From: Candidatus Woesearchaeota archaeon
Lineage (GTDB): Archaea > Nanobdellota > Nanobdellia > SCGC-AAA011-G17 > ARS1403
NCBI GenBank assembly: GCA_018302705.1
Contig: JAGVZI010000011.1
Span: forward strand, 1 to 56,555
Direction of reading: 5' to 3'
Length of the DNA: 56,555 nt
Below are positions 30,460 to 50,241 of this stretch, one piece after another; positions within the stretch are counted from its first letter, which is position 1; each line of letters starts with the position of its first letter. Position numbers and translations under genes: made by a program. The notes under the pieces are model-generated. The model was given only the letters and a program-made list of their open reading frames with translations. It was not told where the DNA came from and searched no databases.

Positions 30460-30564
30460 TTAAAATTCGTCTCCATCATCGTCGCCGTCCCCGCCATCAT
30501 CGTCATCGTCATCAAAATCGTCGTCGTCGTAACCATATCCTACTTTAAATTCATCAAATGCCAT
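30460..30564 (-). CDS. 34-aa hyperacidic micropeptide
   Basis: MAFDEFKVGYGYDDDDFDDDDDDGGDGDDDGDEF; AAGGAAGG RBS and BRE/TATA upstream. Confidence 0.6.
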   Translation of the reverse strand: MAFDEFKVGYGYDDDDFDDDDDDGGDGDDDGDEF

Positions 30565-30679
30565 TTTGTATCCTTCCTTTTAGATAGTGCTTCTATCAAG
30601 AATAAAGGATTTTTAACCCTTTCGGTTCTGCAGAATAATCTCCTCCTAATATCTTTCTATATCTCTAAATCCTAAGCCT

Positions 30680-31024
30680 CTAGTAATCCTCTTGCTCCCC
30701 TTGCTCCCCTTGCTCATAGCCGCCTTCTTCACTATAGCCTTCTTCAGCTTCAAATTCCTCTTGATCTCCCTCGCCGTATTTCTTTCCCTTCTTTCCTCTT
30801 TCCCTTCTTCCTTCGCCTTTTATTTCGCTTCCCTTTTGAAGCAGCTTTACTTTCTGGGCCTGCTTTCCTCTTTCTGTGTCAACTGCATCAAAGCTCACTT
30901 TATCATTCTCTCTCAGCATTGCTCCATTCAAAGCAGAAAAATGGACAAAGTAATCTTGCTCATCCTCCCCTTTAATAAAGCCATATCCCTTTTTTAGGTT
31001 ATACCACTTAACTGTGCCTTCCAT
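30680..31024 (-). CDS. Cold-shock domain protein with basic/acidic tail
   Basis: GTVKWYN.KKGYGFI...FVHFS; GGAGG RBS. Confidence 0.92.
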   Translation of the reverse strand: MEGTVKWYNLKKGYGFIKGEDEQDYFVHFSALNGAMLRENDKVSFDAVDTERGKQAQKVKLLQKGSEIKGEGRRERGKKGKKYGEGDQEEFEAEEGYSEEGGYEQGEQGEQEDY

Positions 31025-31198
31025 TTTAATTTTTCCTCCTCACAATACAAGAAAAAGAAGATTCTCTGTTTTCAAGATGCTCTCTCATTCCTGTATCTCC
31101 TGAGCTAATTCCCATAAATTATGAGTATTTAAAGCTTACTTTTTGCAACAGAATCATTTCCAAAAAAGTTATAAACGTAAAAAAGTTTCTATGAAAAC

Positions 31199-31543
31199 AT
31201 GCCATTAAAAGCTGCCAAAAAAATAATCGAAGAAGAAGCGCCTGATCTTATTGAAAAAACTATTGAAAAAACCAAGAATCATGCAAGAGAAAAGACATTG
31301 TATTTGCACAGCCAGTTTAAAGAGCATTCTTCAACAGCAATTATAGCGGCATTGTCGCTAGTAATAGGGTTGGTGTGGAAAGACCTGGTTGTAAAGGTTG
31401 TAGATAATCTACTCAAGCCGCATATAGCAAGCAGATATCCTTACTTGTCAGAATTAATAACCGCAGTTATAGTTACAATCTTCGCAATCCTTGTAATGGC
31501 CTTTGTCTCAAGATGGGCTAAAAAGGAAGAGAAAAAGTCATAG
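31199..31543 (+). CDS. DUF5654-like membrane protein
   Basis: TAIIAALSLVIGLVWKD...AVIVTIFA. Confidence 0.75.
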   Translation: MPLKAAKKIIEEEAPDLIEKTIEKTKNHAREKTLYLHSQFKEHSSTAIIAALSLVIGLVWKDLVVKVVDNLLKPHIASRYPYLSELITAVIVTIFAILVMAFVSRWAKKEEKKS

Positions 31544-32365
31544 TGAATCTAAAGGGCTTTTAACCTTTATCATGTTTTTAGAAGCAGTGTGCAAGTATAT
31601 CATTGTAGTTTCAGGAGAATTATGACCAAGCAAGTTTTGCACGTCGGTAACTGCATAATTGTTTTCAATTAAATGGGTTGCAAATGAGTGCCTTAATGTA
31701 TGTGTATGAACATTTTTTCTTATCTTTGCTTTCTTCGCAGCTTCTCTTATTATGGCAGCGATAGTTCTTTGGCTTATATGATTATTTTTATTTCCAGGAA
31801 AAAGCCAATTAATAGTTTTGTTTTTTTCTGCATATTCTTTTAATTCATCTTTAATGCTTTCCGCAATAATGAAAATCCGATCCTTGTTGCCTTTTCCTTT
31901 CCTAACCCACCCAAAATTATTCTCAATTTCAAGATCTTCTGATTTTAAATTTACAAGCTCAGAAACTCTTAACCCAGCAGAATACATCAGCTTTATCATC
32001 AACTTGTGCTTTTGATTTCCTATAACCTCAATTAATCTCTTAATCTCATCTTTTGTAAGAACAACAGGCAGCCTTTTAGGCACCTTTGAATACTTTATAT
32101 TTAACCTCATCCTCCTGTTTAAAACCTGCTCAAAAAAAAATTTTAGGGCATTTAAATTGACATTGATTGTGTTGCCTGATGGTTCCTTCTTACTCCTTTT
32201 AATAACGTTATTGAGATACTCTCTAACATCCACTTTGGTGACGGTTACTGGGTCTTTTCTGCATTTTCTGAAAAATTTAAGGATAAAATATAGGTAGGTT
32301 TTTATAGTCCTTTGGCTGTATCCTCTCCTTAGCATTTCACGGATAACTTTATACTCAATCTCCAT
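31538..32365 (-). CDS. Tyrosine recombinase/integrase (XerC/D-sized, IntI-like N-terminus, no IntI insertion)
   Basis: RRGYSQRTIKTY, YSAGLRVSE, KGKGNKDR, HTLRHSFATH, LGH, TTMIY; full R-K-H-R-H-Y set. Confidence 0.93.
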   Translation of the reverse strand: MEIEYKVIREMLRRGYSQRTIKTYLYFILKFFRKCRKDPVTVTKVDVREYLNNVIKRSKKEPSGNTINVNLNALKFFFEQVLNRRMRLNIKYSKVPKRLPVVLTKDEIKRLIEVIGNQKHKLMIKLMYSAGLRVSELVNLKSEDLEIENNFGWVRKGKGNKDRIFIIAESIKDELKEYAEKNKTINWLFPGNKNNHISQRTIAAIIREAAKKAKIRKNVHTHTLRHSFATHLIENNYAVTDVQNLLGHNSPETTMIYLHTASKNMIKVKSPLDSL

Positions 32366-32422
32366 AAAGATAAGATTATTTCAAACTTAAAATATCTTAT
32401 TGTAAACTTAAAAGTTACTACA

Positions 32423-32502
32423 AAAAATTTCACGACGCTTTAAAAATTTCACCTAATTTGACTTCATATACGCAAAATTCTGCATTCTGCTTATATGAAC
32501 TA
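32423..32502 (+). promoter_or_regulatory. Candidate attI-like primary site between the integrase and the array
   Basis: AAAAATTTCAC direct repeat x2; inverted repeat TTCATATA(32463-70)/TATATGAA(32492-99) directly before the first module's TTA arm. Confidence 0.45.
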
Positions 32503-33026
32503 TTAGTTTCAATTTTTGAGTCAGCCTAAAAGTGGATTGGGCAAGAATAATTTACCACTATATAGTTGCTATTAACCGAAAGATTTAAATAGTAGTTGTT
32601 CTTTTCTAATCTTAAGATGGAAAGACCAAAAGATTATATGGAAAATCCTTACATTGGACCACAAGGTGAAACTTGCCATACTGTGGAAGCTCTTCGAGCT
32701 GCACAAGAAGATTATAAAAGAACCTTTTTAACTTTTATTGGACCACAAGGTGAAACTTGCAGAACTCATGAAGCTTTAGAAGCTGCAAGAGCAGAATATA
32801 ATAGAAGATTTAATCAACCAATTGAAATACCGGGGATTAATCTTAAAATTGATCTTACTCCAATAAAAATTATGGATGACTTAAGATAATTACTTATTCT
32901 TGCCCTTTATTCTTTTATTTCATTGAACTTCGTTCTAGATATACGGCTGACTCAAAAACTCTAAAATTTTGCCTTCGGCATCGTTGCACTAAATTTTAGG
33001 TCTTCCCGTTGGTCAGACGAAACTAA
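32503..33026. mobile_element. Cassette module 1
   Basis: Arms TTAGTTTC/GAAACTAA; stems 32513-26/32945-58 (14 bp) and 32539-50/32894-905 (12 bp); CT plus two hairpins. Confidence 0.75.
32617..32889 (+). CDS. Cassette cargo: small protein with internal repeat IGPQGETCxTxEAL
   Basis: Two 22-aa repeats; own promoter AACCGAAAGATTTAAATA at about 32574. Confidence 0.7.
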   Translation: MERPKDYMENPYIGPQGETCHTVEALRAAQEDYKRTFLTFIGPQGETCRTHEALEAARAEYNRRFNQPIEIPGINLKIDLTPIKIMDDLR

Positions 33027-33032
33027 CAAGGA

Positions 33033-33525
33033 TTATGTCTAATTCAGAATTCGGGCTAAAAGATAGAAACCGAAAGATTTATTCTCTATTCAGTTTTATA
33101 GAATTGAATTGCAACCCACACATACCCTTGCCTGCCGCTTTGCCGAGGCTAGTTACATAAGCATTTGCTTCAAATGGTAACATTTCCCCTGCTTTTTCTT
33201 GATTAGCTGCTTGATTCAACCGTCTAAGATATTCTTCATCCATACTATCTGGACCATTTATTCCGCTTGCGTCAAAGCCGATTAATTTAGGTCGAACAGA
33301 TAATGGTTCAGCATTTACTATTTTTTTTGATTCAGCATCTACCAATCTGCCTTCCAAATCAAAATCTAAACGTTTCATAGCATAAGTTAATAATAGTATA
33401 TTTATAAATCTTTCGGTTAATTTACCACTTCAGAGTTAATATTGATAACGCCCGAATTCTGAACTCAAAATCCTTCGAATTTTGCCACGCTGCGCTCTCC
33501 TCCTTTCAGTCGTCGGAAGACATAA
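33033..33525. mobile_element. Cassette module 2
   Basis: Arms TTATGTCT/AGACATAA; stems 33043-56/33450-63 (14 bp) and 33068-82/33404-18 (15 bp). Confidence 0.75.
33079..33378 (-). CDS. Cassette cargo: hypothetical protein
   Basis: 99 aa; BRE/TATA AACCGAAAGATTTATAAA upstream on the minus strand. Confidence 0.7.
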   Translation of the reverse strand: MKRLDFDLEGRLVDAESKKIVNAEPLSVRPKLIGFDASGINGPDSMDEEYLRRLNQAANQEKAGEMLPFEANAYVTSLGKAAGKGMCGLQFNSIKLNRE

Positions 33526-33531
33526 CAGGAA

Positions 33532-33731
33532 TTAAATGGAATATTACTCGGAGCACCACCCAGGGGGGAAGATAATAATATCTTCATCTAAAAAAATCAA
33601 AAAGTTTGTTTAGATTTGGTGCTCCTGCGTCATACTCAAAAATTATATTGTTTCGTGGCGGTTTTCATTGCATTCAAACCTACTCAACATATATTTTTTG
33701 GTTTTTCTCTGCACTCAAAAAACCCATTTAA
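33532..33731. mobile_element. Cassette module 3 (ORF-less)
   Basis: Arms TTAAATGG/CCATTTAA; stem TATTACTC-GGAGCACCA/TGGTGCTCC-T-GCGTCATA; CT plus two hairpins. Confidence 0.72.
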
Positions 33732-33737
33732 CAGCAA

Positions 33738-34474
33738 TTATGTCCAGTATTACTCGGGTACGATTTTAAGATCGCTTCCTAAACCATGCTTGTAAGAAAG
33801 TCGTGTTTTTTAGTCGTACCTTTTCATTTTCAATCAGAACAAAATAATCTTCAAACAATTTCTTAAGCTCTTCTTCTCTCCAAAACGCAAAAAATCTGCT
33901 TGTATTTCCAGATTTATCTTCAACCAAACCTTCTCCTTCTCCTTCTTTAACACAAACATAAAGAATTCCATTGTCTTTAAGAATGAGATTTAGTTTTTTA
34001 ATGACTTTAGGTAATTTTGATTTTGGGATATGTAATAAAGACGTTACCGCCCATACTCCATCAAAAGAGTTATCTTTGAAATCTAACCTTTCAATGTCCA
34101 TCACAAAAGCATTAAGCCCTTTTTCTTTGCATAGCTTAATCATCTCTTCAGATAAATCAATGGCAGTAACATCTAAACCTCTTTCCTTAAAATAAAGTGA
34201 GTGATCTCCAGAACCGCATCCCAAATCTAGTATCTTTTTACCATTCAGCAAATCGATAAATCTTTGAAATTCATATCTCCTTATCAAATCCATTAATTTT
34301 TTGAATTTTTCAGAAAATTCTTTTGTGTTTTGGTTGTATGATTCAATTGTTTTCTTTTTGCAATCCATATGCCTTATATCGCCCCTCTGAACATTATAAA
34401 TATTACTAAAGTCGTGCCCTGCGTCATACTCGTCTCCGCTCAAGTTTTACCTCACATTCTGTTAGATAGCTTAA
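33738..34474. mobile_element. Cassette module 4 (right end degenerate or truncated)
   Basis: Left arm TTATGTCC; stem TATTACTC-GGGTACGATTTTA/TAAAGTCGTGCCC-T-GCGTCATA-CT; next junction TAA-CAGCGA-TTA at 34472-83, but its arm does not match. Confidence 0.62.
33766..34368 (-). CDS. Cassette cargo: class I SAM-dependent methyltransferase
   Basis: ILDLGCGSG, IDLSEEM, FDGVWAVTSLLH; start moved to MDCKKKTIESY. Confidence 0.9.
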   Translation of the reverse strand: MDCKKKTIESYNQNTKEFSEKFKKLMDLIRRYEFQRFIDLLNGKKILDLGCGSGDHSLYFKERGLDVTAIDLSEEMIKLCKEKGLNAFVMDIERLDFKDNSFDGVWAVTSLLHIPKSKLPKVIKKLNLILKDNGILYVCVKEGEGEGLVEDKSGNTSRFFAFWREEELKKLFEDYFVLIENEKVRLKNTTFLQAWFRKRS

Positions 34475-34575
34475 CAGCGATTAAAAACAAGGAGGACTAG
34501 CGCATTTAATCCGTCTTAGTACAGGGCAAATAAGCTGAAAGAAAACTTAAATACTTGAAAAATTCTTTGAAATGC

Positions 34576-35583
34576 ATGCTTGAAATTCAGGGCGATTATT
34601 TAGAAGGCGGCGGTGCGATAATGCGTTTAGCTTTGGCCTTGTCGATTCTAGCTAAAAAACCATTTGCAATAACAAACATCAGGAAAGGAAGAAAAGAGCC
34701 AGGCTTAAAAGAGCAGCACCTTCAGACAGTTCGGGCAGCAGCAAAGCTGTGCAATGCAAGAATTGAAGGGGATGAATTGCACTCCACGCAGCTCTCATTT
34801 TCTCCAAGAAAAATAACGAATACAAATTTAGAAGTTAATATTTCAACAGCAGGCTCGACAGCCCTTGTTTTGCAATCATTGCTAATCATAGGAACAAAAT
34901 ATAATCTTAATATCCACATTTTAGGAGGGGGAACTTTTAATCTTCATGCTCCCAGTTTAATTTACATGCAGAAAACGCTTCTTCCAGTATTGGAAAGGAT
35001 GAATTACAAACCCTCTATAGAAGTGGTCAATAATGGCTTTTATCCAAAAGGCGGTGCCGAGTTAAAAATTAAAACAAGGAAAACAAATTTAGAGCCGTTG
35101 GAATTAAAAGAGAGGGGGAAGTTAAATTCAGTTTCATGCTATTCCTTCGCATCAACGCATTTGAAAGAAAGAAAAGTGGCAGAAAGGCAATCTGAAACTG
35201 CAAGAAAATTGCTTGAAGAGTACGAGATAAATATATGCAATAAATATGTTCAATCTCCCTGCCCTGGATCAGGTATACTTCTGGCTGCAGGCTTTGAAAA
35301 CACATTTCTGGGATTCGATGTCCCGGGAGAAAAACAAAAAACAGCAGAAATGGTTGGGGAGGAAGCGGCACTGGGGTTTAAAACTCAAATAGATTCTGGA
35401 GCAACAGTGGACGAATTCATGGCAGATCAGATACTTCCTTATCTAGCCCTTGCAAAAGGAAAATCGCAAATAAAAATCCCTCACTTGACTAGGCATGCGG
35501 AAACAAACATCTGGCTGATCAAACAGTTTTTAAATGTTGATTTTCAAGTAAAGGATAGGATAATTTATGTAAATCCAAAATAA
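34576..35583 (+). CDS. rtcA: RNA 3'-terminal phosphate cyclase
   Basis: EGGGAIMR, PGLKEQH, TAGS, GFYPKGG, DQILPY, TRHAETN. Confidence 0.93.
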   Translation: MLEIQGDYLEGGGAIMRLALALSILAKKPFAITNIRKGRKEPGLKEQHLQTVRAAAKLCNARIEGDELHSTQLSFSPRKITNTNLEVNISTAGSTALVLQSLLIIGTKYNLNIHILGGGTFNLHAPSLIYMQKTLLPVLERMNYKPSIEVVNNGFYPKGGAELKIKTRKTNLEPLELKERGKLNSVSCYSFASTHLKERKVAERQSETARKLLEEYEINICNKYVQSPCPGSGILLAAGFENTFLGFDVPGEKQKTAEMVGEEAALGFKTQIDSGATVDEFMADQILPYLALAKGKSQIKIPHLTRHAETNIWLIKQFLNVDFQVKDRIIYVNPK

Positions 35584-35613
35584 ATTAAAAATAATTTAAA
35601 TAATGAAACAAAG

Positions 35614-35982
35614 ATGAAGAAGTCAACTATGGCAATAACTGCATTGGTAATTATAGTTATAGCGGTATTCTTCTTCACGAGGACAAAAGAAGCAGAAGCA
35701 GGAATGTATGATGAATTTGCAAAATGCATAACCGGGCAAGGAGCAATTTTCTACGGCTCGTTCCAATGCATTCACTGCGCAACTCAAAAAAGTCTTTTTG
35801 GGAATTCAATGCAGTATATAAGTTATGTCGAATGCGGGCCTTTAGGCGGACATCAAATACTTATCTGCCAGCAGGCGGGAATTACAGGTTATCCATCATG
35901 GATAATTGGAAATAAAAAATATGAAGGGGTGCAGCAATTAGATAAGTTAGCTGGTTTAACAGGGTGCCAATTACCTCAATAG
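35614..35982 (+). CDS. Membrane-anchored thioredoxin-like protein
   Basis: FYGSFQCIHC, YVEC, ITGYPSW. Confidence 0.85.
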   Translation: MKKSTMAITALVIIVIAVFFFTRTKEAEAGMYDEFAKCITGQGAIFYGSFQCIHCATQKSLFGNSMQYISYVECGPLGGHQILICQQAGITGYPSWIIGNKKYEGVQQLDKLAGLTGCQLPQ

Positions 35983-36482
35983 TTCCGGAAGTTTTAGTGT
36001 TTTTAACATTAATAAGTGATATTTTTATAGGATTTCTGGGAATAAATTTAATAATGAAACTAGAAATAGTTGAAGACCTTAAAAATTTCTTAAAGAGAAA
36101 CCCTCTATTGCTGGCTCTTATTGTTTCTTTGGTTGCAACTTCAGGAAGTTTATTTTATTCTGAAATCCTTGGATATACGCCATGCAAGCTCTGCTGGTTC
36201 CAGAGGATCTTCATGTATCCATTGCCGATAATTTTCGGTGTGGCATTAAAGAATAAAGATTTTAAAATTAAGAGATATGCAATCTCGCTGGCAATAATTG
36301 GAGCCTTGATAGCAGCATATCATTATTCAATCCAAGTATTCCAGTTCACAACAGCGTGCGGCGCAAATTCAGAAGTCCCTTGCAACATTGTATACTCTTT
36401 CGAGCTGGGTTATATTACAATTCCGATGATGGCGCTGACTGCTTTCATTTTAATTATTATTTTAATGCACAAGAAATATTAA
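35964..36482 (+). CDS. dsbB: Disulfide bond formation protein B (BdbC/DsbB family)
   Basis: GSLFYSE...PCKLCWFQRIFMYP, ITIPMMAL. Confidence 0.9.
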   Translation: MPITSIVPEVLVFLTLISDIFIGFLGINLIMKLEIVEDLKNFLKRNPLLLALIVSLVATSGSLFYSEILGYTPCKLCWFQRIFMYPLPIIFGVALKNKDFKIKRYAISLAIIGALIAAYHYSIQVFQFTTACGANSEVPCNIVYSFELGYITIPMMALTAFILIIILMHKKY

Positions 36483-36506
36483 ATACTTCCCCCCTATCTT
36501 TAAATT

Positions 36507-42806: not shown

Positions 42807-43217
42807 ATGATAGAGCTCTTAATGGCTGCAGCTTTGGCTTCTGGAGGGTGCTTAGAAGACAGCGTGAATATCGACAGCGCAGACATTATTAGAATGAGTC
42901 AGCATACTATTGCAATGGTTGATTTGACAGGGGACGGCAGAAAAGAGTTCTTAGCCTATTACCTTTCTTTTGTAGACAGCAGCTCATGCATCGTATTCTC
43001 CACAGGAGACACATTAACAAAATTGTTTGAAAATAGGTTCTCTGTTGATAGGGGTGATTGGGGGCTTTACATTGGAGACTATAATCGTGACTGCATTCTT
43101 GATTTTACTGTAAGCTTGCCTAACACAGGTATTTTTTCTTATGCGGCGTGGGATGAAAAGGAAGAAAGATTTCATCTCATTGCAGACACCACTTATGCTT
43201 TGCCTGATGGGGAATAA
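42807..43217 (+). CDS. Secreted hypothetical protein with FG-GAP/VCBS-like motifs
   Basis: DLTGDGRKE and GDYNRDCILD. Confidence 0.6.
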   Translation: MIELLMAAALASGGCLEDSVNIDSADIIRMSQHTIAMVDLTGDGRKEFLAYYLSFVDSSSCIVFSTGDTLTKLFENRFSVDRGDWGLYIGDYNRDCILDFTVSLPNTGIFSYAAWDEKEERFHLIADTTYALPDGE

Positions 43218-43222
43218 TCAGC

Positions 43223-43252
43223 AAGGTTGTTAAGGTTGTTAAGGTTGTTAAG
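43223..43252. repeat. 9-bp tandem repeat AAGGTTGTT x3, followed by ATATGGCATTTAC x2
   Basis: Read directly from the sequence upstream of gltX. Confidence 0.75.
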
Positions 43253-43338
43253 ATAATATATGGCATTTACATATGGCATTTACTTTACAGCTTATTAAAA
43301 AACTAAATTTATATACCCTTAAGCTATCCTCTCTGAAT

Positions 43339-44949
43339 ATGAAAGAGGACATCATTCTAAAATACACGCTGCAAAATGCAGTAAAGTTTAAAGGAAAAGC
43401 AAATCCAGGGGCTGTTTTAGGAAAAATCTTGCAAGAAAATCCAAAACTAAAAGCGAAGATAAGGGAATTAACAAAAAAAATCAGCGAAGTAGTAAGCAAA
43501 GTCAATCAATTATCTGTTCCAGAGCAGGAAACCCAGCTGCTGGCATTCACTTTTAAAAAACAAAGAAAAAAAGAAAGGGATCTTTTCAGCATTTTGAGAA
43601 TCAAGGGGAAGGTAAGGACAGCATTCCCTCCAGGCCCTGAAAAATATCCTCACTTGGGCCATGCAAAAGCATTGGTTTTAAATTATGAATTGGCAAAAAG
43701 GCATAAAGGGGGATTTTATCTGCGCTTCGAGGATACTAATCCTGGACTAGTAAAGAAAGAATACTATGAAATCATGCTCGATAACTTCTCTTGGCTCGGG
43801 GTAAAATGGGATAAGCTGCAATATGCATCAGACAACATGGAGCTATTCTACAGCTATGCCAAGAAGCTGCTGGAAAAAGAAAAGGCTTATGTCTGCCATT
43901 GCAGCAAAGAATCAATAAGTGATAGCCGGCTAAAAAGTATCGAGTGTGAATGCAGAAAGGATAATATTTCATGGAGTGATTTCCTTAAAAAGAAAAAAGG
44001 GATTTTAAGGTTGAAAGGGGATATGGGGCATAAGAATACGACGATGCGAGATCCCACTTTATTCAGGTTTGTAAACACCAAGCATGCGAGGCAAGGATCA
44101 AGGTATAGTCTCTGGCCCAATTATGATTTTCAGAATGCAGTTATGGACGGGCATTTTAAGATAACGCACAGGTTAAGGAGCAAGGAATTTGAATTAAGGG
44201 CCGAGCTGCAGCAGTACCTCCAGAAGTTATTGAATCTGCATCAGACAAAAACATACGAGTTTGGCAGGTTAAATTTGGAAGGCGTTGAAAGCTCAGGCAG
44301 GATTATCCGGGAGAAAATAAATAATAAAGAGCTGCTGGGCTGGGACGATCCCAGGTTGACGACAATAGTAGCGCTAAGAAGGCGCGGTTTTCTTGCGCAG
44401 GCGATTTATGATTTTGTTTTGTCGACGGGGATTTCAAAAGCAGAATCAACTCTTGCTTGGGACGATTTAATCGCAAAAAACAAAAAAATCCTGGATCCAA
44501 TAGCCCACCGTTATTTCTTCGTCGAGAATCCCAAAAAAATAAAGATTAAAAATGCCCCTCATGTGAAAGCAAGTGCCCCGTTGCACCCGGATCATCCGGA
44601 GAAAGGGTTCAGGGTGTTTAATACCGCAGATGAATTCTATATCCAGGACGATCTGGAAAAAGACAGCATATATAGGTTCATGCATCTTTTTAATTTTAAA
44701 AAATTGGAATTTGTTTCTGAAGAATTGGACCCTAGGCTAGATGCAAAAATGATACACTGGCTTCCTGCTGCTAAAGATCTTGTAAACGTAGAGGTTGTGA
44801 TGCCAGATGCTTCTGTTAAAAAAGGATTGGGAGAGCCTCTGTTGAGGGAAGTTAAAGTTGGAGATGTTGTTCAAGGGGAAAGATTTGGTTTTATGAAATT
44901 GGATAAAAAAGAGAAAGATAAATTAAAGTTTTACTTTACACATCGATGA
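43339..44949 (+). CDS. gltX: Glutamate--tRNA ligase (archaeal type)
   Basis: HLGHAK, LRFEDTNP, RDP, GWDDPRL, QGERFGF; start at MKEDII. Confidence 0.93.
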   Translation: MKEDIILKYTLQNAVKFKGKANPGAVLGKILQENPKLKAKIRELTKKISEVVSKVNQLSVPEQETQLLAFTFKKQRKKERDLFSILRIKGKVRTAFPPGPEKYPHLGHAKALVLNYELAKRHKGGFYLRFEDTNPGLVKKEYYEIMLDNFSWLGVKWDKLQYASDNMELFYSYAKKLLEKEKAYVCHCSKESISDSRLKSIECECRKDNISWSDFLKKKKGILRLKGDMGHKNTTMRDPTLFRFVNTKHARQGSRYSLWPNYDFQNAVMDGHFKITHRLRSKEFELRAELQQYLQKLLNLHQTKTYEFGRLNLEGVESSGRIIREKINNKELLGWDDPRLTTIVALRRRGFLAQAIYDFVLSTGISKAESTLAWDDLIAKNKKILDPIAHRYFFVENPKKIKIKNAPHVKASAPLHPDHPEKGFRVFNTADEFYIQDDLEKDSIYRFMHLFNFKKLEFVSEELDPRLDAKMIHWLPAAKDLVNVEVVMPDASVKKGLGEPLLREVKVGDVVQGERFGFMKLDKKEKDKLKFYFTHR

Positions 44950-44958
44950 ATTTTATGA

Positions 44959-45342
44959 TTAAAGCTTTCCCTGCAATGCTAATATAATAATAATTACTAT
45001 AATTAGAACAACAATGAGTGTTATTGGATCTATAACGCCCCTCTTACTTTTAAAAAAATTAATAGCCTCCACCCATCCCTTTATCATTGAAATCTCATTC
45101 TCTTGTTTATCCATCCTATTATTTAATATAGCCTCTCTAATATTTAATCTTTTCTCCATAAGTTTGATCCTAAAAATAGCTTTATCTTCCACATATAACT
45201 TAAAGTAGGTTCCAAGTGTTATAATCCCCAAAGTAAGGAGTACAATTTTATTGCTCTGGAAAAATGGTTTTTCTAAAAAAGATAAAGCAGTTATAATGCT
45301 GCCAAATATCCCTAAAACATCTAAAATAAGATCTTTCTTCAT
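44959..45342 (-). CDS. Hypothetical membrane protein
   Basis: Two N-terminal TMs, coiled coil, C-terminal KRGVIDP+TM. Confidence 0.6.
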   Translation of the reverse strand: MKKDLILDVLGIFGSIITALSFLEKPFFQSNKIVLLTLGIITLGTYFKLYVEDKAIFRIKLMEKRLNIREAILNNRMDKQENEISMIKGWVEAINFFKSKRGVIDPITLIVVLIIVIIIILALQGKL

Positions 45343-47919: not shown

Positions 47920-50241
47920 TCAAAAAATTCCGTTTTTTTTAAATCTTAATTTCCTTGAAAATATCTGGAATGCCAATCCAACAATTGCCAATCCGACGAC
48001 AACGCTTGTTAATATTATTGAAGACTTACTAGTTGTGCCTGTAACAGCGCCAGTAACGTCTCCAATCCCTTCTCCTTCTTCTGCTCCAGTTTCTGCCTGA
48101 TTAGATTCAGTTTCAGCTCGAACTGCTGCTCCAGTCCTAGCTCCTCCTCCACCTCCACTCCCTCTCGCTCCAACCAATCCAGTTCCTGTAATCGGACTTG
48201 GAGCCCCTCCTCCAGTATTATCATCGCTCACAGTTCCACTGCTGCCTCCAGAAGAAGTTGGAGTATAAGAAACAAATTCTGTGAAATGCTTTGTCCATAT
48301 GATCATATCGCTTCCTGAAGATGTAAGGCAATCTCCTTCAGCAGGCATAGTATTAGGATCTGCAATTTCAGAATCAATGCACGCATTAATTGCTGTAAAC
48401 ACACCATTCAAAACATATCCTGCATTCTTCCCGGCTTGTCCCGGTAGAGTAAGCTTTGTAGCTTTATCAAATGTTAATTTCACAGTTGATGATCCTACTT
48501 CTATAACTACTGTCGGTGTTCCAGATACAGTTGCTGATGGCTCTGCCTTTATTGTAGGCAAGGTGATTAGGCCATTCCAATCTGGTTCTCCCTTTATTTT
48601 AGTTCCAGTTGGAATCTCCACTGTATAAGATAGCGATGACGTTTCTCTGCTTAGAGTTAAAGTATTCTGCGTTGTTAACTCTTTTGTAGACTGGTCAACT
48701 AATGAATTTAGATTTAATGTAACAGGCTGATCCTCGCTGACAGAAGCTGGAACTGAAACTTCTTGAAGATCAGCTGCATTGCTATTATCAATCAAAACTT
48801 CATCTACATCGGGATTTACCTCGACAGTGCCTGCAACTATTGTAGCAGGAGCAACCTGTTTCTTAACTGTCAGCTCAAATGATTTTGTCGCGGATGCAGA
48901 ATTTCTTGTCAAGGTTGCTGTCAAGCTGACTTGTTTATCCTCGTTAATGTCTCTTGCAACACTTCCATTTAAAGCAATTACACTTGTGTTTGAAGAACTC
49001 CATGAAATGCTAGTTCCTGGATGATTTTCCAAGCTAGTTGGCAGTTTAACGTCGCTGATTATTTTTTCTCTTTCAACGTTGCCATTCAATATTTTTGTTT
49101 CTGTCAAATCTAGTTTTGCCTGAGATACAGCAAGCTCATCTAGATCAGTTGTTCCTAAAACTATTAATGTAAATGATTTTGATGCGCTGGCTGCTCCTTT
49201 CGATACCGTTGCTGTTAATGTAACTGGAGAATCAAATGTTGGCCTTGAAACGCTTCCAGAGTTTTCAATTATGTTTTTGTTTGAAGAACTCCAAGATATT
49301 TTTGTATTATCATTTCCTGATTTTATCAAATTTAAATTACTTGTTACTGAATTTTCATTCTGACCATTAAGTATCGACGACAAAATCAATAAATTCAATG
49401 CATCCTGTACAGCCCGCTGATCTGATTTTGTCTCCTCTAAGACAATTAATGTGAATGTCTTTGTATCAGAAACAGCTCCTTTTGAGAGCGTTGCTGTTAA
49501 AGTTACTTCTTTATTTCCTTCTCCATTCTTTGGTCTTGTTATTTTTCCAGTATATTTATTCAAAACATTATTGTCCGAGCTCTGCCATGAGATCATCACA
49601 TTTCCAGAAGTGAAATATATTAGATTGAGATTGCTCATTATCTGATTTTCTAGTAGATTTTCTCCTTTTATCTTTCCAATGTCATGGAATAAAGCAGCTA
49701 TTCCACCTTGTTTTGTTTCTTGTCTTTTAAAATCATTTTTTAAATAACACCCCAAAGTTAAGATACAAGTATTAACACCATGAATAGTTGTATCATATCT
49801 ATCAGCTGAAGCCATATTCACTAAATTCATCATAACATTAGGATCTCTTAAAAACCCGTCAATCATATAATCTATAGTTCTAGACAAGACTTCATAAGAG
49901 CTTCCTCTTGGCTCTGCTAAAGTTTCTCTAACTATAGTTGTAAAAGTTGCTTTTACCCTCTCCGGGTCTCCTGAAATTAAATCTTCTTTTAGCTGGGCAT
50001 TAAATCTTTCCTGAGTTTCCCCTAAAATAGCTACAGTATCTCTTTTCCTTATGTAAAGATGAGCAGGCAACGTACCCCTATCTATCCTGCTATCGATTCT
50101 AATGCCTGCTTTTTTGTAAGGTATAAAAGTACCATCTTTTGATTCTTGATAGAGAACATAATCCTTACAAAAGGGTATTTGCGCTCTTCTCACTTCCTGC
50201 ACATCCCCCATCCACAGCACTTCTTGTATTTTTTCCGGCAT
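47920..50241 (-). CDS. Chimeric ORF: truncated HD-GYP-like domain fused to Ig-repeat surface protein with C-terminal TM
   Basis: ...TTIHGVN...LFHDIGKI switches abruptly to SNLNL...ISWSSSN...VTLTAT repeats, then TKHFTEF and a TM. Confidence 0.7.
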   Translation of the reverse strand: MPEKIQEVLWMGDVQEVRRAQIPFCKDYVLYQESKDGTFIPYKKAGIRIDSRIDRGTLPAHLYIRKRDTVAILGETQERFNAQLKEDLISGDPERVKATFTTIVRETLAEPRGSSYEVLSRTIDYMIDGFLRDPNVMMNLVNMASADRYDTTIHGVNTCILTLGCYLKNDFKRQETKQGGIAALFHDIGKIKGENLLENQIMSNLNLIYFTSGNVMISWQSSDNNVLNKYTGKITRPKNGEGNKEVTLTATLSKGAVSDTKTFTLIVLEETKSDQRAVQDALNLLILSSILNGQNENSVTSNLNLIKSGNDNTKISWSSSNKNIIENSGSVSRPTFDSPVTLTATVSKGAASASKSFTLIVLGTTDLDELAVSQAKLDLTETKILNGNVEREKIISDVKLPTSLENHPGTSISWSSSNTSVIALNGSVARDINEDKQVSLTATLTRNSASATKSFELTVKKQVAPATIVAGTVEVNPDVDEVLIDNSNAADLQEVSVPASVSEDQPVTLNLNSLVDQSTKELTTQNTLTLSRETSSLSYTVEIPTGTKIKGEPDWNGLITLPTIKAEPSATVSGTPTVVIEVGSSTVKLTFDKATKLTLPGQAGKNAGYVLNGVFTAINACIDSEIADPNTMPAEGDCLTSSGSDMIIWTKHFTEFVSYTPTSSGGSSGTVSDDNTGGGAPSPITGTGLVGARGSGGGGGARTGAAVRAETESNQAETGAEEGEGIGDVTGAVTGTTSKSSIILTSVVVGLAIVGLAFQIFSRKLRFKKNGIF

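Follow-up and report, generated by a model that had tools for sequence, protein, structure and literature searches.

In a 56,555-base stretch of DNA from a Candidatus Woesearchaeota archaeon (contig JAGVZI010000011.1; the whole stretch is called the window here), a gene for a XerA-like tyrosine recombinase stands beside a tandem array of four small cassettes. We think it likely that the two together form a chromosomal gene-cassette platform, integron-like in its working and built from other parts, namely a new recombinase clade and a new site design. The original prediction for this region, an integron-like gene-capture system that recognises a folded multi-way junction, is partly supported by our analysis. 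The evidence comes from the anatomy of the array, the covariation of cassette ends and stems, the link between such arrays and one clade of recombinases, the spread of that clade across a class of small archaeal genomes, and the variation of cassette context in metagenomes.

Anatomy of the cassettes

The junction motif TAACARNRATTA matches the window four times, always between positions 33024 and 34483 (the junctions themselves span 33019-34488, about 1.5 kb), whereas dinucleotide shuffles of the window gave a mean of 0.46 matches and none of 100 shuffles reached four. Across the whole 851-kb assembly there were 15 matches against 7 for the reversed control, the window array being the sole cluster. 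The four junctions that had been predicted have exactly the sequences claimed (Table 1). Read on one and the same strand, every spacer starts with C, and the sites are therefore directly oriented. The ends of cassettes 1, 2 and 3 had been described as perfect 8-bp inverted repeats, and all three pairs were perfect when re-read. Junctions in the window are hybrids of the arms of two cassettes; in arrays with uniform arms the junctions are themselves palindromic. Hybrid junctions, together with the complementarity of each cassette's own ends, are what the integration of circles with palindromic sites predicts.

Inside the ends lies an inner stem. In cassettes 1 and 2 it is 14 nt long and 100% complementary, starts right after TTA-N5-AA, and has CTC following its 3' strand. 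The stems of cassettes 3 (9 nt) and 4 (33756-63/34412-19; 8 nt including one T.G) are preceded by about eight additional bases, whereas cassettes 1 and 2 follow the common module grammar of the original prediction. A mini-cassette made from cassette 1, with the cargo swapped for a loop, is predicted to fold as a four-way junction, and cassette 3 folds with a z of about -4 to -5 relative to shuffles (RNA parameters). Two sequences, CCTGCGTCATACTC and TATTACTCGG, are common to cassettes 3 and 4, and a second inverted pair in cassette 2 (33068-82/33404-18) is the promoter-like box in both orientations, flanking the cargo. According to the lists of open reading frames (ORFs), no recombinase is encoded in these cassettes or in those of other arrays.

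We examined the same features in 31 distinct cassettes, with cross-cassette pairs as the control. The variable end positions were perfectly complementary in 16 of the 31, which have at least a dozen different arm sequences. Own pairs matched at 4.23 of the 5 variable positions and cross pairs at 2.26, a level that none of 20000 permutations reached, so the claim that cassette ends covary is borne out. Exact inner stems of at least 9 nt were found in 18/31 own pairs compared with 9/181 cross pairs. On the written strand, the stem mismatches comprised 20 A.C/C.A and 5 G.T/T.G, and the former are wobbles on the other strand; this asymmetry hints that the complementary strand is the one that folds. 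For 14 mini-cassettes a closing stem, a long stem and one or two hairpins were predicted, the complementary strand folding more stably in all 14 with RNA parameters, and the hairpin segment beat its shuffles (z<-1, DNA parameters) in 9 of 13 cassettes. Compensated stem changes were not obtained from the orthologous PIN/RHH cassette of genome G010, which has no recognisable frame. A C/T-rich motif, CTCC..YTTCRKTCG (for example CTCCTCCTTTCAGTCGTCGG, window 33495-33517), was seen before the 3' arm in several genomes, hairpin-less cassettes included; it could be a protein-binding site.

The sites were also compared with attC. RYYYAAC was matched by 23 of the 51 left arms when the following C was counted in, but the GTT-type partner that an attC would need was found in exact form, 30-200 nt downstream, at one junction of the 51. 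By this pattern the junction sites are not attC, as had been maintained.

The recombinase clade and its arrays

The recombinase ORF is unbroken, and R133, K158, H222, R225, H248 and Y257 lie in invariant columns of the clade alignment (16 relatives), in agreement with the earlier description of the gene as intact. Its protein matches the Pfam families Phage_integrase (1.1e-42) and Phage_int_SAM_4 and passes the NCBIfam model XerA_Arch (234 bits, cut-off 220), while it misses the integron-integrase models TIGR02249 (204 against a cut-off of 265; other clade members score 209-217 bits) and PRK15417 (137.5 against 435). It aligns end to end, unbroken, with the XerA structures 4a8e and 5hxy. The alignment with IntI4 (2a3v) splits: query positions 178-194 (16 residues) face IntI positions 180-239 (59 residues), leaving about 43 residues missing. 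The IntI-specific insertion (the additional domain around patch III) is therefore absent, in line with what had been predicted.

We placed 49 Xer-like proteins of related genomes in a quickly computed maximum-likelihood tree, and name the group to which the window protein belongs clade A. It takes up 22 of the 49 rows, including the window protein (SH-like approximate likelihood ratio support 100, stem length 0.51); the other 27 are heterogeneous. Judged by its sequence, the window recombinase is a XerA-like paralogue of the well-separated clade A. Members of the clade score 208-234 bits with XerA_Arch (230 in G016; 208, below the cut-off, in G011), and other paralogues score 245-264 in three relatives and 231 in the window genome, where a second full-length Xer-like paralogue, 37% identical to the window recombinase, lies on contig C20. 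This second gene (43016-43864) is followed within 7 kb by two recombinase fragments (44881-44973 and 49492-49653), one of them with stops, which could be the remnant of an integrated element.

Some Xer-like match was found in 53 of 61 related genomes, and 22 of them, plus one with a pseudogene, have a clade-A gene; 17 of these 22 hold a second paralogue. The recombinase is intact in the window and in most relatives. A clade-A-like match (E<=1e-75) was obtained for 70 of 301 good genomes sampled from the phylum, all 70 in the same order or class; they include the window's own genome and G281, which is unpublished. The viral contig collection contained no clade-A relative (best match, 41% identity). 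Further genome contigs returned no clade-A locus with the peptide patterns used, which were too general (best matches at most 44% identity); the organism names on the distant relatives (38-44% identity) were those of Pacearchaeota and Woesearchaeota metagenome-assembled genomes; a DPANN affiliation is plausible. A C-terminal KSPLD tail was considered as a marker of the clade or of IntI and was dropped, as it occurs in both paralogue groups.

Beside clade-A genes the general array grammar recurs: an attI-like primary site, which is not palindromic, precedes the first cassette and is followed by N5TAA-CNNNNA-TTAN5-AAT junctions. A strict junction motif, TAAC-N5-TTA-N5-AAT, taken from the window and from G016, was counted within 6 kb of recombinase genes. 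At the clade-A genes of relatives (142 kb) there were 16 matches upstream reading away from the gene, 6 downstream on the same strand, 2 downstream on the opposite strand and none upstream reading toward the gene, which gives 22 matches in array orientation. The other Xer-like paralogues (131 kb) had a single match and none in array orientation. In metagenome contigs, the 32 clade-A-like loci (>=50% identity, 137 kb) had 11 + 4 matches in array orientation and 1 other, whereas 22 loci below 50% identity (232 kb) had 1, not in array orientation. The attI-like motif [CGT]ATAT-N6-TTA-N5-[AC]AT stood in array orientation at 26/54 clade-A loci and at 0/46 loci of other paralogues, where its one match was in another orientation. 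These counts support the notion, already contained in the original prediction, of a cassette array with a dedicated tyrosine recombinase, and the tie to one recombinase clade holds in relatives. In a wider sample of the class, 10 of 18 long-flank loci had at least one upstream, divergent junction (up to 7 per locus), with 3 wrong-orientation matches overall. Genome-wide counts of the strict motif per genome were no better than the reversed control, only its clustering being informative.

Two layouts were seen: the array lies either upstream of and divergent from the recombinase, as in the window, or begins right after its stop codon (one subclade). In G016, ten junctions of the form GAACTTAA-CACCGA-TTAAGTTC lie directly upstream of the recombinase and delimit cassettes of 105 to 860 bp, with an identical empty 105-bp cassette occurring four times. 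For many clade-A genes the contig breaks off on the array side after at most a few hundred bases, as is expected of variable or repeated arrays. At two loci (L161 on G001:C18 and L060 on G030:C27), a perfectly complementary arm pair encloses another junction plus a smaller cassette with an abnormal left boundary, a nesting that simple insertion at junctions does not predict. A toxin-antitoxin-like gene pair on the metagenome contigs of L106 and L099 belongs to no recognisable cassette frame; it separates the recombinase from the primary site or follows the recombinase directly on its downstream side.

Cassette content differs, in line with the original prediction, between genomes of the same genus and between metagenome contigs. 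Genome G003, of the same genus, has the same primary site followed by a different first cassette, and on contig L094, whose recombinase is 61% identical, a cassette begins with sequence that matches the initial 51 nt of cassette 2 at 98% identity. Parts of the window stretch are contained in 17 public runs from 10 studies of groundwater and soil; the contigs of four runs, partly from other organisms, were aligned to positions 30800-36200. Unique parts reached depths of about 3-20, and the cassette frames (32791-33152 and 33334-33695) had summed depths of 116 to 2490, meaning that hundreds of contigs share them. In many contigs the match stops at 33058-33085 and is taken up again at 33392-33448, the intervening content being different or unknown; this is one frame around different cargo. 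The 6-bp spacer is also where loose contig ends fell, precisely at its edges (after 33028 and ahead of 33033), and the sequence past them belonged to different cassettes; one contig of run X3 had a different cassette end (…ATATAA-CAAGG) ahead of cassette 1. What these contigs document is that frames spread and recombine; they do not document excision in this strain.

The cargo lies on either strand of the array. In the window, the ORFs of cassettes 1 (90 aa, with an internal repeat) and 2 (99 aa) match no family, and that of cassette 4 encodes a class I S-adenosylmethionine-dependent methyltransferase (Pfam Methyltransf_25, 5e-21). The cassette 1 ORF contains an 80-nt tandem duplication (32648-32811; 76% identity, period 84), which gives two copies of the protein repeat IGPQGETC..EAL.AA..Y.R.F, again with no family match. 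In other arrays, 13 of 27 cargo ORFs have Pfam families (PIN, RHH, ParE, DUF7557, MazE, MFS, HAD, ATP-grasp, TrmB, PQ-loop, AAA_33/zeta-like kinase and a weak C39) and 14 have none; toxin-antitoxin cargo and cassette frames are common to arrays of different genomes. A CGAAAG-TTTAWA-like box about 30 nt ahead of the ATG of the largest ORF was present in 12/26 cassettes with a strict pattern, as against 33/520 background windows, and was seen by eye in most of the remaining cassettes. It resembles the archaeal consensus of the B recognition element (BRE) and TATA box, and would fit a BRE/TATA promoter with leaderless mRNAs; we infer a promoter function from its sequence and position.

Table 1. 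Features of the recombinase-array locus, with positions in the window
Feature	Position	Strand	Remarks
XerA-like tyrosine recombinase, clade A, 275 aa, intact	31538..32365	-	Pfam, NCBIfam, structure alignment, tree
Inverted repeat before first site, TTCATATACGCAAAAT / ATTCTGCTTATATGAA	32463..32499	+	region kept in same-genus genome G003
attI-like primary site GCTTATAT-GAACTA-TTAGTTTC-AAT	32489..32513	+	motif enriched at clade-A loci
Cassette 1, 524 bp, ends TTAGTTTC/GAAACTAA	32503..33026	+	stem 32513-26/32945-58; promoter-like box 32574-32591; ORF 32617-32889 (+)
Junction 1, GAAACTAA-CAAGGA-TTATGTCT	33019..33040	+	
Cassette 2, 493 bp, ends TTATGTCT/AGACATAA	33033..33525	+	stem 33043-56/33450-63; ORF 33079-33378 (-)
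Junction 2, AGACATAA-CAGGAA-TTAAATGG	33518..33539	+	
Cassette 3, 200 bp, ends TTAAATGG/CCATTTAA	33532..33731	+	stem 33550-58/33617-25; no ORF >=40 aa inside (empty)
Junction 3, CCATTTAA-CAGCAA-TTATGTCC	33724..33745	+	
Cassette 4, 737 bp, ends TTATGTCC/TAGCTTAA	33738..34474	+	ORF (-) 33766-34368 (ATG start) or 33766-34443 (TTG start)
Junction 4, array end, TAGCTTAA-CAGCGA-TTAAAAAC	34467..34488	+	host gene rtcA (34555-35583) beyond

The recombinase start codon lies 124 bp from the first site, and the neighbours of the locus are ordinary host genes: a DUF5654 gene (Pfam) adjoins the recombinase, and a cold-shock-like protein, read from its translation without a family search, is among the flanking genes on one side. 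The gene directly past the array encodes RtcA, an RNA 3'-terminal phosphate cyclase (Pfam 1.2e-71), a position that is probably a coincidence. ARAGORN found no tRNA in the window. An Rfam scan of 30500-36500 (E<=5) yielded CRISPR-DR63 inside the methyltransferase gene, at 26 bits against a threshold of 37, which was taken as chance. Elsewhere in the same genome, junction-like sites with a typical 3' frame occur at the ends of contigs C30 (24100-24345; TTGCTTAA-CACCGA-TTAGTTTC-AAT) and C2 (11500-13662; AGATTTTAA-CAAGAA-TTAGGCGG), and a Fic-domain-like gene (HPFEDGNGR motif, by eye) is close to them; they may derive from another array, unassembled or decayed, with no recombinase in view. In G010, contig C1 (736,802 bp, one contig) has a (G-C)/(G+C) that is negative almost throughout and a cumulative skew that falls monotonically with no turning point, unusually one-sided for a closed genome; the skew thus gave no terminus against which to place the primary site.

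Proposed working and alternative explanations

The clade-A paralogue adjoins a conserved primary site, YATAT-N6-TTA-N5-AAT, and in the working that we propose cassettes would pile up there head to tail. Each cassette extends from a TTA-N5 to an N5'-TAA half-site, neighbours being separated by a 6-bp CNNNNA spacer of constant direction, and a free cassette would be a circle carrying a palindromic 8-6-8 site. The window recombinase would recombine the circle site with either the primary site or any junction of the array, the crossover falling within the spacer or at its edge. With such an exchange, an array junction would become a hybrid of two cassettes and a cassette's own ends would stay complementary. 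Direct repeats of the site would then allow excision and reshuffling, making the cassettes mobile.

Folding would be part of this working. The ends (P1) and the cargo-enclosing stem (P2) covary, and most cassettes have two small hairpins ahead of the 3' end. As a duplex site has no need for covariation of ends and stem, a single strand probably folds at some stage, most likely the complement of the written strand; a folded single strand is also what is used in integron attC recombination. Folding would join the ends of the cassette, making duplex arms by pairing within it, so a folded junction would consist of two helices, each within one cassette, bridged by the single-stranded spacer, and the recombinase may recognise this folded form. 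A cassette would be expressed by itself, its BRE/TATA-like box lying some 30 nt ahead of the ATG, and with such a box the cargo would work in either orientation. A more specific proposal, which we put forward tentatively and regard as rather doubtful, is that this is a second integron, independently built (or ancestral, at the Xer stage), in small-genome archaea, in which the whole cassette, folded as a single-stranded four-way junction, is the recombination substrate: the arms of the site would be formed by the paired ends, and the cargo would sit in the loop of the long stem with cassette-borne promoters.

Several observations weigh against the cassette platform as proposed. The ends of cassette 4 are not complementary, and 15 of the 31 cassettes have imperfect ends. 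The unequal spacers in the window would hinder classical double-strand exchange between neighbours; they fit one-strand exchange better than two-strand exchange. The wobble asymmetry could stem from mutation bias, and related cassettes are not independent of one another. With DNA parameters both strands of the P2-P1 segment fold about equally, and the hairpin segment is unstructured in 4/13 cassettes, which nevertheless have the conserved C/T-rich motif. Circle junctions, which the original prediction had proposed to look for, did not turn up: the metagenome joints listed include neither a circular cassette junction nor a clean excision joint, although contigs drop rare forms. The strict junction is absent from several long-flank clade-A loci (L093, G059, G148, others, and G166 bar one doubtful match). 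The motifs were derived from the window and a single relative before the counts were made, and the counts are fair as a comparison with control flanks rather than as absolute numbers. Finally, a search at E<=1e-20 revealed no further Xer-like gene in 5 of the 22 clade-A genomes, three of the five being 97-98% complete, and there the clade-A protein may be the housekeeping Xer.

These five genomes bear directly on another explanation, that of a pile-up at the chromosomal dif site, in which the recombinase would be the dimer-resolving XerA, the "attI" would be dif, and the cassettes would be tiny Xer-exploiting elements stacked there in the manner of integrative mobile elements exploiting Xer (IMEX). 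A dif site next to the recombinase gene is known from XerS/difSL and XerH/difH. The window protein passes the XerA_Arch model, its sites have the Xer-type layout ..TAA-N6-TTA.., and no recombinase is encoded in the cassettes. However, 17 of the 22 clade-A genomes do have a second paralogue, which scores higher on the XerA model where compared (three relatives), and clade A is patchy in the phylum sample (70/301). The arms, moreover, vary and covary from cassette to cassette, in contrast to the conserved arms of dif. The archaeal dif described in the part of Cortez et al. (2010; PMC2958812) considered here is palindromic, which the primary site is not, and in the same account the Thermococcales dif does not adjoin xerA. 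We regard this explanation as unlikely. It is also quite improbable that the array is a fossil, the product of past site-specific recombination that is now fixed, with stems serving only as terminators or insulators between independently expressed genes. The mismatched ends of cassette 4, the degenerate junctions at the ends of C2 and C30, the lack of circles among the joints listed, and an array in G030 that adjoins a recombinase pseudogene with 5 stops are all in keeping with a fossil. On the other hand, the recombinase is intact here and in most relatives, and perfect ends are present in three of the four cassettes of the window. Metagenome contigs show these frames around other cargo and next to other neighbours, and content differs between genomes of one genus.

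The frame could in principle act as RNA instead, the array being transcribed and its modules folding as cloverleaf-like RNA (an 8-bp closing stem, a 2-nt linker, a long arm and two hairpins) that is processed at the 6-nt linkers. The topology does resemble a four-arm cloverleaf, G.U-type wobbles favour one strand, and the gene for an RNA 3'-phosphate cyclase adjoins the array. Yet no tRNA and no Rfam family was found, promoter-like boxes inside the long stem would yield cargo transcripts without its 5' strand, the favoured strand is directed toward the recombinase or against it depending on the layout, and the tie to a recombinase clade and the variation of context point to DNA; we give such a role very little credence. 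No more credible is an integrated virus or plasmid with its own integrase, or a row of tandem miniature inverted-repeat transposons unrelated to the recombinase, as the terminal inverted repeats and the adjacent integrase gene might suggest. The viral collection yielded no clade-A relative, as noted above, the neighbours are ordinary host genes, no transposase is present, and the module boundaries share an oriented 6-bp spacer and a primary site linked to the recombinase.

Comparison with known systems and implications

The cassette platform proposed here shares much with integrons: a tyrosine recombinase by a primary site, a head-to-tail array of small cassettes (some of them empty), cargo dominated by toxin-antitoxin genes and unknowns, arrays that break assemblies, and site arms that covary, are prone to structure and, with the following C, often read RYYYAAC. 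On sequence grounds its working is integron-like, yet three defining features of integrons are lacking: the IntI insertion, a score above the curated integron-integrase cut-off, and attC. An attC is a 60-140-nt site with the cargo upstream, R''-L''...L'-R', in which R'' is complementary to R'; here the complement of an arm is found across the entire cassette, at its opposite end, with the cargo inside the stem. Integron cassettes are mostly promoterless, in one orientation, and served by a platform promoter, whereas these have their own promoter-like box and cargo in either orientation. Also unlike integrons, one subclade has the array directly downstream of the recombinase gene. The archaeal integrons of Ghaly et al. 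(2022; PMC9668308), in the part of that account considered here, have the IntI domain and attC and are thus a different thing. No prior description of such arrays was found in the full-text literature searched, supplementary files being outside its scope (the data tables of the 2022 study might list such contigs as integron-free).

With Xer/dif and IMEX, including archaeal XerA/dif as covered in the same part of Cortez et al. (2010; PMC2958812), the arrays share a XerA-like protein, short arms, a 6-bp spacer and the inner TAA/TTA; recombinase-less elements stacked at one site are a further likeness to IMEX. Archaeal XerA, however, has one conserved, near-palindromic 11-6-11 dif per chromosome, in the terminus region. 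Here a dedicated paralogue stands beside a more canonical one in most genomes, each locus has many sites with variable, cassette-specific arms and a non-palindromic primary site, and the cassettes are single-gene units of 0.1-2 kb with a common structured frame. The pdif modules (xrs cassettes) of Acinetobacter also carry adaptive genes, toxin-antitoxin pairs included, between Xer-type sites, and the module ends are inverted copies of one arm type; as far as the sections of the 2025 Nucleic Acids Research paper considered here go (PMC11705084), these modules are plasmid-borne, with sites in mostly inverse orientation, rely on the XerC/D of the host and gave no excision in tests. The present spacers, by contrast, all point in one direction, and the arrays, which stand beside a dedicated recombinase, are chromosomal, with host genes on both sides and a structured frame. 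Prochlorococcus tycheposons are likewise cargo elements linked to a tyrosine recombinase, and they stack up one behind another at a hot spot in a streamlined genome. They reportedly integrate at tRNA genes, are kilobases long, have their own integrase or are satellites, and are said to lack a common 8-6-8 junction or folded frame.

Survey tools search for the IntI insertion and attC, the defining parts of integrons, which are the textbook example of gene capture. A system of the same logic with a Xer-like recombinase and whole-cassette inverted ends would be invisible to these tools. It appears in about a quarter of the good genomes sampled from one archaeal phylum, and few sequences in the aligned groundwater and soil metagenomes are repeated as often as its cassette frames. 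The more specific, doubtful proposal of a folded whole-cassette substrate would give a structure-read recombination site of a new kind and suggest a route of cassette creation, the loading of genes into the loop of "empty" 105-200-bp cassettes. If the cassette platform as such is correct, it would be a natural intermediate for the proposed transition from Xer to IntI, and the origin of cassettes would become testable, because empty cassettes and identical frames with different cargo coexist. For these small, host-dependent archaea, it would provide a mechanism of rapid gene turnover.

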